From: Escherichia coli
GTDB taxonomy: Bacteria > Pseudomonadota > Gammaproteobacteria > Enterobacterales > Enterobacteriaceae
Strand: one strand, 5' to 3'
Length of the DNA stretch: 64,000 bases
Assembly: GCF_001677475.2 (NCBI RefSeq)
Contig: NZ_CP015229.1
Shown: piece after piece, positions 52,894 through 54,525 of the stretch
Layout of the letters: each line of letters opens with the position of its first letter
Numbering within the stretch: the stretch's first letter is position 1
The notes under the pieces: generated by a model
The model's input: the letters and a program-made list of their open reading frames with translations, nothing else
What the model was told of the DNA's origin: nothing
The model's database searches: none
Position numbers and translations under genes: made by a program

Positions 52894-54358
<1,465 letters not shown>

Positions 54359-54400
54359 TGTTCCTCCTCACCCGCAACCACTCCGGGTGTTCAATAAGGC

Positions 54401-54448
54401 TATCCCTTAATTGTGCATGCTGTTGCGACTATGCACAATTAAGGGATA
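54401..54448. promoter_or_regulatory. Perfect 18-bp inverted repeat with 12-bp spacer in the panE-yajQ intergenic region; candidate operator or RNA structure
   Basis: TATCCCTTAATTGTGCAT-(12 nt)-ATGCACAATTAAGGGATA. Confidence 0.4.
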
Positions 54449-54525
54449 CGTCCTGGTGCAGGACTGTTGGTTATTTAACTTTGCAGGTATTATGCTTCGC
54501 ATCAAAAATGAAGGGAGAGGAAAAG

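Follow-up and report, generated by a model that had tools for sequence, protein, structure and literature searches.

The analysed window, i.e. the whole 64,000-nt stretch of Escherichia coli DNA, contains panE at 53447-54358 on the minus strand and yajQ at 54526-55017 on the plus strand. The divergent panE-yajQ context given by a sequence-only reading of the same DNA was confirmed, and the gene order thiI-yajL-panE/yajQ-yajR was the same as in E. coli K-12. The divergent layout is kept across Enterobacterales, with spacers of 75-240 bp. The panE-yajQ spacer carried no feature annotation in any E. coli genome record (5426 complete genomes). An 18-bp perfect inverted repeat had been reported within 54395-54470. 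The repeat search returned a left arm, TATCCCTTAATTGTGCAT, at 54401-54418 and a right arm, ATGCACAATTAAGGGATA, at 54431-54448, which were complementary at 18 of 18 positions, as claimed, and separated by an asymmetric 12-nt loop, GCTGTTGCGACT, at 54419-54430. The loop sequence varied freely among the Citrobacter homologues described below. The repeat ended 78 nt before the yajQ ATG, in agreement with the reported distance of about 80 bp. The second, smaller hairpin of the sequence-only reading was also found (54450-54464, plus strand), with a 6-bp stem and a loop of 3 nt, GTCCTG-GTG-CAGGAC, and not the 4-nt loop given there.

The palindrome is real and non-random. With up to 3 mismatches allowed, the arm 18-mer occurred only at these two sites in the 64-kb window, and two or more matches were obtained in none of 100 shuffles. 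It was the longest perfect hairpin-type repeat of the window, the runner-up having arms of 13 nt; in 20 block-shuffled windows the longest perfect hairpin arm did not exceed 12 nt. The predicted folding energies of the plus- and minus-strand RNAs were -30.7 kcal/mol (z = -6.95) and -29.2 kcal/mol (z = -7.71), respectively. The fold consisted of 18 perfect pairs, 2 pairs beyond an internal loop and 3 flanking pairs, and the stem was kept in the centroid fold of the 282-nt leader 54259-54540. It thus offers the continuous helix of about two turns (~20 bp) that is typical of RNase III hairpins in mRNA leaders. The octamer CAATAAGG was present both at 54249-54256, just past the -10 of the distal plus-strand promoter, and at 54392-54399, just before the left arm; this repetition is probably due to chance.

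The tabulated Cappable-seq entries for the region (Ettwiller 2016; U00096.2 coordinates, converted to the window by subtracting 389381) list three primary starts on the plus strand, at 54259, 54446 and 54501. The distal yajQ start, 54259, lies inside panE (Cappable-seq 443640, score 35.9), next to a promoter listed by Conway at 443641, and is preceded by a -10 hexamer TACAAT at 54247-54252. The middle start, 54446 (443827, score 43.2), falls within the right arm, and the small hairpin begins 4 nt from the 5' end of its transcript. The proximal start, 54501 (443882, score 63.7), belongs to a promoter with the -10 TATTAT at 54488-54493. The latter hexamer sits inside the GGTATTATGC block, which was invariant from Escherichia to Kosakonia and is, on comparative sequence, the ancestral yajQ promoter. 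The whole hairpin is present only in transcripts from 54259, the yajQ leader of which is 267 nt long. That the helix belongs to a transcribed mRNA follows from the published 5'-PPP start at 54259 and the listed Conway unit 443641-444835.

The site had been considered undescribed by the sequence-only reading, which did not hold, since it was published as an RNase III site by Gordon, Cameron and Pfleger in 2017 (mBio 8:e00128-17, PMC5371410). They listed the site 'Intergenic (panE-yajQ)' at NC_000913.3 444573. The position of K-12 panE, 443604-444515, sets the offset to the window at 390157, and therefore the published site corresponds to 54416 on the plus strand, the 16th base of the left arm. 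The rnc mutant exceeded the wild type 48-fold and 32-fold in read coverage at 444573 (PMC5371410). In the same study purified RNase III cut the yajQ-panE site in vitro (scored 'Y') using templates on both strands that spanned the whole spacer (yajQ-sense 54220-54957, panE-sense from 54571 downwards), multiple cuts were detected by 5' RACE, and the long helix was predicted and drawn in figure 4. The half-life of yajQ mRNA was about 6 min in the wild type and about 3 min in the rnc mutant, and it was pointed out by the authors that hairpin formation is also possible on the panE strand (PMC5371410). It is possible that the RNA-seq library did not preserve strand information; which of the two RNAs is cut in vivo is therefore deduced from the altered yajQ half-life. 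The RNase III finding at panE-yajQ was restated in a later review, and two further papers (PMC12403712, PMC10948358) name the panE and yajQ genes for unrelated reasons. The hairpin has accordingly been known as an RNase III target in the yajQ leader since 2017, and the object itself is not new; the site of Gordon et al. and the palindrome are the same sequence. The 2017 study is without discussion of the transcript starts at the palindrome edges, the restricted phylogenetic distribution and the origin by insertion. Of the identities proposed earlier, a very stable 5'-UTR structure is right, though only for the longest yajQ isoform out of three, with its start at 54259, where the hairpin is a verified RNase III substrate. 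Likewise, the earlier question of transcript activity at the palindrome is answered by published data, in which both transcripts and processing exist.

RNase III hairpins are familiar from the mRNA leaders of rnc, pnp and adhE and from phage T7 R1.1. These classical cases share with the yajQ leader a long, near-perfect helix in the 5' leader, the cutting of which alters the fate of the mRNA. In the rnc and pnp leaders the cleavage destabilises the message, whereas in yajQ it stabilises the message downstream. Unlike the classical hairpins, the helix of the yajQ leader adjoins a 140-nt sense/antisense duplex with the divergent gene.

The duplex itself is documented in other data sets. The tables of Huang et al. 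2020 tie the locus to the dsRNA data of Lybecker and to the divergent operons of Conway. The dsRNA MS-115 of Lybecker 2014, classed there as 'Divergent', corresponds as listed to 54257-54455 with a seed at 54257-54399, which covers the overlap, on both strands, of the long yajQ leader with the 5' end of the panE mRNA. The Conway plus-strand unit is given with a promoter at 443641, a terminator at 444835 and a 142-nt overlap with the panE operon, up to 443783, i.e. 54402 of the window. The p19-captured RNase III duplexes (Huang 2020, cluster 'panE 5'') extend over 54056-54395, with ends at 54395-54396. Because the Conway end, the MS-115 seed and the p19 duplexes all stop there, the panE mRNA appears to start at the outer boundary of the left arm; up to this point the long yajQ leader is antisense to it, and beyond it the leader folds on itself. 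The panE-yajQ locus is thus one of the cases of divergent 5'-overlapping mRNAs processed by RNase III of Lybecker 2014 and Huang 2020. However, the duplex described in these studies is intermolecular (54257-54399), whereas the palindrome forms the adjacent intramolecular hairpin.

Termination of the 54259 transcript short of yajQ, by an intrinsic terminator or attenuator, was considered in the same region. A terminator-like site was flagged at the small hairpin, with TGTTGGTTAT behind it, but one flagged site is the chance level in shuffled sequence (0.7 expected), and the listed Conway plus-strand unit 443641-444835 runs through yajQ. The absence of a U-tract noted earlier was evident as well: the large stem is rich in A+T and leads into CGUCCUGG, which differs from the G+C-rich stem directly before a U-tract of an intrinsic terminator. 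Such an attenuating role is scarcely credible. The proposal of a small structured RNA gained no support, as there was no Rfam match to the palindrome; the single hit of the scan of 54000-54900 at E <= 10, to SNORD19 (E = 5.4), lay elsewhere in the stretch and is due to chance. The element could not be placed among REP/BIME, ERIC/IRU, other extragenic repeat families or MITEs, being found at a single place in each of 5424 E. coli genomes.

The ends of the transcripts coincide with promoter-like elements inside the palindrome. Each arm contains the heptamer ATTGTGC/GCACAAT, which can be read as a -35 element in one direction and as a -10 element in the other, with spacers of 17 bp. On the plus strand, the putative hexamers are -35 TTGTGC (54411-54416) and, after 17 nt, -10 CACAAT (54434-54439), and 6 nt further an A at 54446 is the predicted +1, which is exactly the Cappable-seq start tabulated at 443827. 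The spacing and the distance to the start are those of sigma-70 promoters (hexamers 16-18 bp apart, start 6-8 nt past the -10). Since the symmetry of the palindrome gives both strands the same reading, a mirror promoter for panE would be formed on the minus strand by -35 TTGTGC (54438-54433), 17 nt and -10 CACAAT (54415-54410), with the predicted +1 A at 54403. The corresponding published values are 54402 for the 5' end of the panE operon (Conway) and 54399 for the end of the dsRNA seed (Lybecker), as listed; the value of about 54402 for panE was derived from operon mapping and from the extent of the dsRNA, and could represent a processed end. The 48 bp therefore appear, on their sequence, to comprise two mirror-image sigma-70 promoters with common elements. 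With a match of 7 out of 12 to the consensus, the embedded promoters were not called by a consensus promoter scan.

Bidirectional promoters with starts 7-25 bp apart and a common -10 were described by Warman et al. (bioRxiv 2020.01.31.928960; Nat Microbiol 2021). The palindrome resembles them in that divergent transcription would arise from symmetry-coincident elements on opposite strands. It falls outside their class, the divergent starts being about 43 bp apart and the sharing being that of a -35 with a -10. The GGTATTATGC block (54486-54495), in turn, reads CATAAT on the minus strand, and could be a bidirectional -10 of the Warman type that fires also towards panE through both hairpins.

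The conservation of the element was high within the species. The panE-yajQ spacer was found once per genome in 5424 of the 5426 complete E. coli genomes. The 48-bp element was 100 % identical in 5384 of the 5426 genomes and had 1-2 changes in a further 28; the common polymorphisms of the spacer, K-12's among them, fell outside it. In E. coli 13TMH22 (NZ_CP019256.1) the left arm is interrupted at about 54409/54410 by the IS3-family element IS1203, the match being resumed at the tenth base of the 48-bp element. In NZ_LT883142.1 the intergenic match ends after query base 114 (about 54472) and occupies two places in the record, which points to a further interruption, past the small hairpin and before the proximal yajQ promoter.

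An identical perfect palindrome was present in E. albertii, the only species returned by a perfect-repeat scan of 80 orthologous loci. The scan was too strict, because the alignment revealed imperfect homologues with 25-nt arms in the C. freundii complex (werkmanii, youngae, the braakii cluster and related metagenome contigs). Salmonella (125-bp spacer), C. amalonaticus and C. farmeri (113 bp), Enterobacter, Klebsiella and all others of the compared set lacked the element. Conservation across Enterobacteriaceae, put forward by the sequence-only reading as a check, is accordingly lacking, the distribution being limited to Escherichia and the C. freundii complex. In the spacer alignment the lineage-specific segment with the palindrome, 54392-54454, lies between ...CAGGTGTT and a block homologous to AGTATAGCG, and is 63 nt long in E. 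coli, 70 nt in C. werkmanii and 9 nt in C. amalonaticus and C. farmeri. Because the last two species have the same flanks with just 9 nt between them, the palindrome is regarded as a discrete insertion; judged by the alignment, the element is a lineage-specific insertion of about 55-60 nt.

The small hairpin at 54450-54464 was homologous to the AGTATAGCG block, which reads TATACT on the panE strand. The block was intact in Citrobacter and Enterobacter, and the Salmonella version, ATTATAGCG, reads TATAAT on the panE strand. This TATACT is probably the ancestral -10 of panE, as far as the alignment tells. In Escherichia the block was altered to GGTGCAGGA, and the small second hairpin of Escherichia is a consequence of that change.

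The right half of the spacer (about 54465-54525) showed a grouping at odds with the usual species tree. E. coli grouped there with all Citrobacter species (GCTTCGCATC) and Salmonella with Enterobacter (GCAACGCAAC and the CAGCTAAGCTTCT block), which hints at recombination in the spacer. Among the Salmonella sequences, CP082688.1 ('plasmid pN18S0406-2', Salmonella Bredeney, 237 kb) carried the chromosomal panE-yajQ locus. Contamination was rejected as its source, the spacer being the same as that of genuine Salmonella, and the record is for this reason regarded as a chromosome fragment filed as a plasmid.

The insertion could also be a neutral relic, MITE-like or produced by template switching, with the promoter activity and the RNase III cleavage as unselected by-products. 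Such an origin would fit a clean insertion of about 55-60 nt that contains little beyond the palindrome itself, in a spacer that is an indel hot spot across Enterobacterales (75-240 bp) and in which, in one E. coli strain, the left arm is split by IS1203. However, the element was single-copy in E. coli, had no match in the phage collection and none in true plasmids, and had no evident target-site duplication; five 'plasmid' matches were to Mb-sized records, probably mislabelled chromosomes. Neutrality is further at variance with the invariance of the 48 bp in E. albertii and in 99 % of the E. coli genomes, where flanking intergenic positions are polymorphic, with the wobble-compatible substitutions in Citrobacter, which indicate upkeep of the stem, and with the published measurable effect on yajQ mRNA stability (PMC5371410). 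We therefore consider a neutral relic unlikely.

The Citrobacter homologues differed in how the two strands would fold. In all 8 Citrobacter sequences, wherever the symmetry was broken, the yajQ-sense strand had a C.A and the panE-sense strand a G.U combination. The predicted stem energies of the 8 sequences were -24 to -32.5 kcal/mol for the panE-sense strand vs -7 to -22 kcal/mol for the yajQ-sense strand. In the alignments of nine distinct sequences 86.6 % of the cells were paired on the panE-sense strand vs 70.5 % on the other, and 8 pairs vs 0, respectively, varied solely by wobble-compatible changes. Owing to the small sample of related sequences this asymmetry is suggestive only; it suggests that what is maintained in Citrobacter is an RNA stem of the panE leader, and speaks against a protein-binding DNA palindrome. 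The putative promoter hexamers of Citrobacter were invariant in the 8 homologues, with TTGTTC/18/TACAAT on the plus and TTGTAC/18/AACAAT on the minus strand.

These data raise the question whether the palindrome is primarily an RNA structure of the panE leader on the minus strand, with transcription starting to the right of the hairpin, the stem acting as a 5'-proximal stabiliser or processing site and the yajQ effect being secondary. In addition to the much better stem of the panE-sense strand in all 8 Citrobacter homologues, the ancestral -10, TATACT, is still present in Citrobacter a short way upstream of the hairpin on the panE strand, and the CATAAT read on the minus strand of the invariant GGTATTATGC could fire towards panE. 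The panE-sense template, on which the same hairpin is possible, was among those tested in vitro (PMC5371410). In E. coli, however, the ancestral -10 has been mutated to GGTGCAGGA, and the panE 5' end and the sense/antisense duplexes stop, in the listed data, at about 54395-54402, the outer edge of the hairpin. Moreover, yajQ stability alone was changed in the rnc mutant (PMC5371410). For these reasons a primary role in the panE leader is rather doubtful, and the hairpin is preferentially assigned to the long yajQ leader.

A separate conserved 6-bp stem-loop, which is not part of the palindrome, was recognised by alignment in the panE leader at 54369-54389 on the minus strand. Its arms are CACCCG...CGGGTG in E. 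coli, CACCTG...CAGGTG in most genera and CATTCGC...GCGAATG in Cedecea, and the 3' arm abuts or overlaps the Shine-Dalgarno sequence GAGGAGG. In 16 Enterobacteriaceae 92.7 % of the cells paired and three of the six pairs had compensatory double changes; the covariation score was reached by none of 500 shuffles. The RNAalifold analysis was carried out with a subset alignment, as the alignment with distant genera was misaligned. The more distant genera had an unrelated short G+C stem at this position. The stem-loop was without an Rfam match, and its pairing pattern is that of an element that may act in the translation or stability of panE.

Overlapping divergent promoters under a palindrome are known from bioA/bioBFCD, which carries the 40-bp palindromic operator bioO. 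The panE-yajQ palindrome is similar in that about 40-48 bp of symmetric sequence lie over two back-to-back core promoters of divergent genes. It differs from bioO in being without an indicated binding protein and, in the relatives of E. coli, in a symmetry that is held at the RNA level. An operator for a dimeric regulator had been among the proposals of the sequence-only reading; in this case a dimeric or tetrameric factor bound to both arms would co-regulate panE and yajQ in the bioA/bioB style, with NtrC as one candidate. In favour of an operator, the site is symmetric and covers the two putative core promoters, and NtrC gSELEX in vitro gave a peak of 41 % intensity in the spacer (v2 443846, i.e. 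54465 of the window). The resolution of NtrC gSELEX is low, however, and the 17-bp NtrC box TGCACCAnnnTGGTGCA had no match in 54359-54525 with up to 3 mismatches. No other factor was reported at the panE-yajQ spacer in the literature searched. The symmetry of the Citrobacter DNA has been eroded, 15-19 of 25 positions still being Watson-Crick, with G.U rescue of the pairing on one strand only, and recognition of DNA by a protein would not select for G.U pairing on one strand. Lacking a canonical box and with such one-strand pairing in Citrobacter, the operator proposal found no support and is very unlikely.

The best explanation as a whole, an RNase III leader hairpin with embedded mirror promoters in a lineage-specific insertion, is in our opinion probably correct; its RNase III and leader part comes from published experiments, and its promoter part we infer here. 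A promoter inside panE, with the start at 54259, gives a long yajQ leader with a stem-loop of about 20 bp. RNase III cuts the stem and thereby frees the yajQ message from a 140-nt leader piece that is antisense to panE, and the cut yajQ mRNA lives about twice as long. The same 48 bp as DNA would provide two sigma-70 promoters, for the middle yajQ start at 54446 and for the panE start at about 54403. The palindromic insertion of about 55-60 nt would have arisen in the lineage of Escherichia and the C. freundii complex, and in Escherichia it would have taken the place of the ancestral panE promoter. A further point against this explanation is that the 18/18 symmetry exceeds the strict need of a promoter or an RNase III substrate. 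The more specific claim of a dual use, with interlocked panE/yajQ promoters at the DNA level, an RNase III hairpin at the RNA level and an insertion that supplanted the ancestral panE promoter, now decayed into the small second hairpin, is one on which our confidence is evenly divided. The interlocked promoters, the insertion origin with the restricted distribution and the strand asymmetry in Citrobacter are what is added here to the published work, and all of them we infer from published starts and comparative sequence.

As a discovery the palindrome has little weight, the hairpin and its cleavage by RNase III having been published in 2017. It is a reminder that RNase III sites of this sort are missing from genome annotation. 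At the same time, one 48-bp palindrome may serve both as DNA, in the form of interlocked divergent promoters, and as RNA, in the form of a processing site. The locus also represents a dated evolutionary event, namely the apparent displacement of a promoter by a palindromic insertion. If true, the geometry in which a -35 is shared with a -10 would widen the symmetric bidirectional promoters past the class with a common -10.
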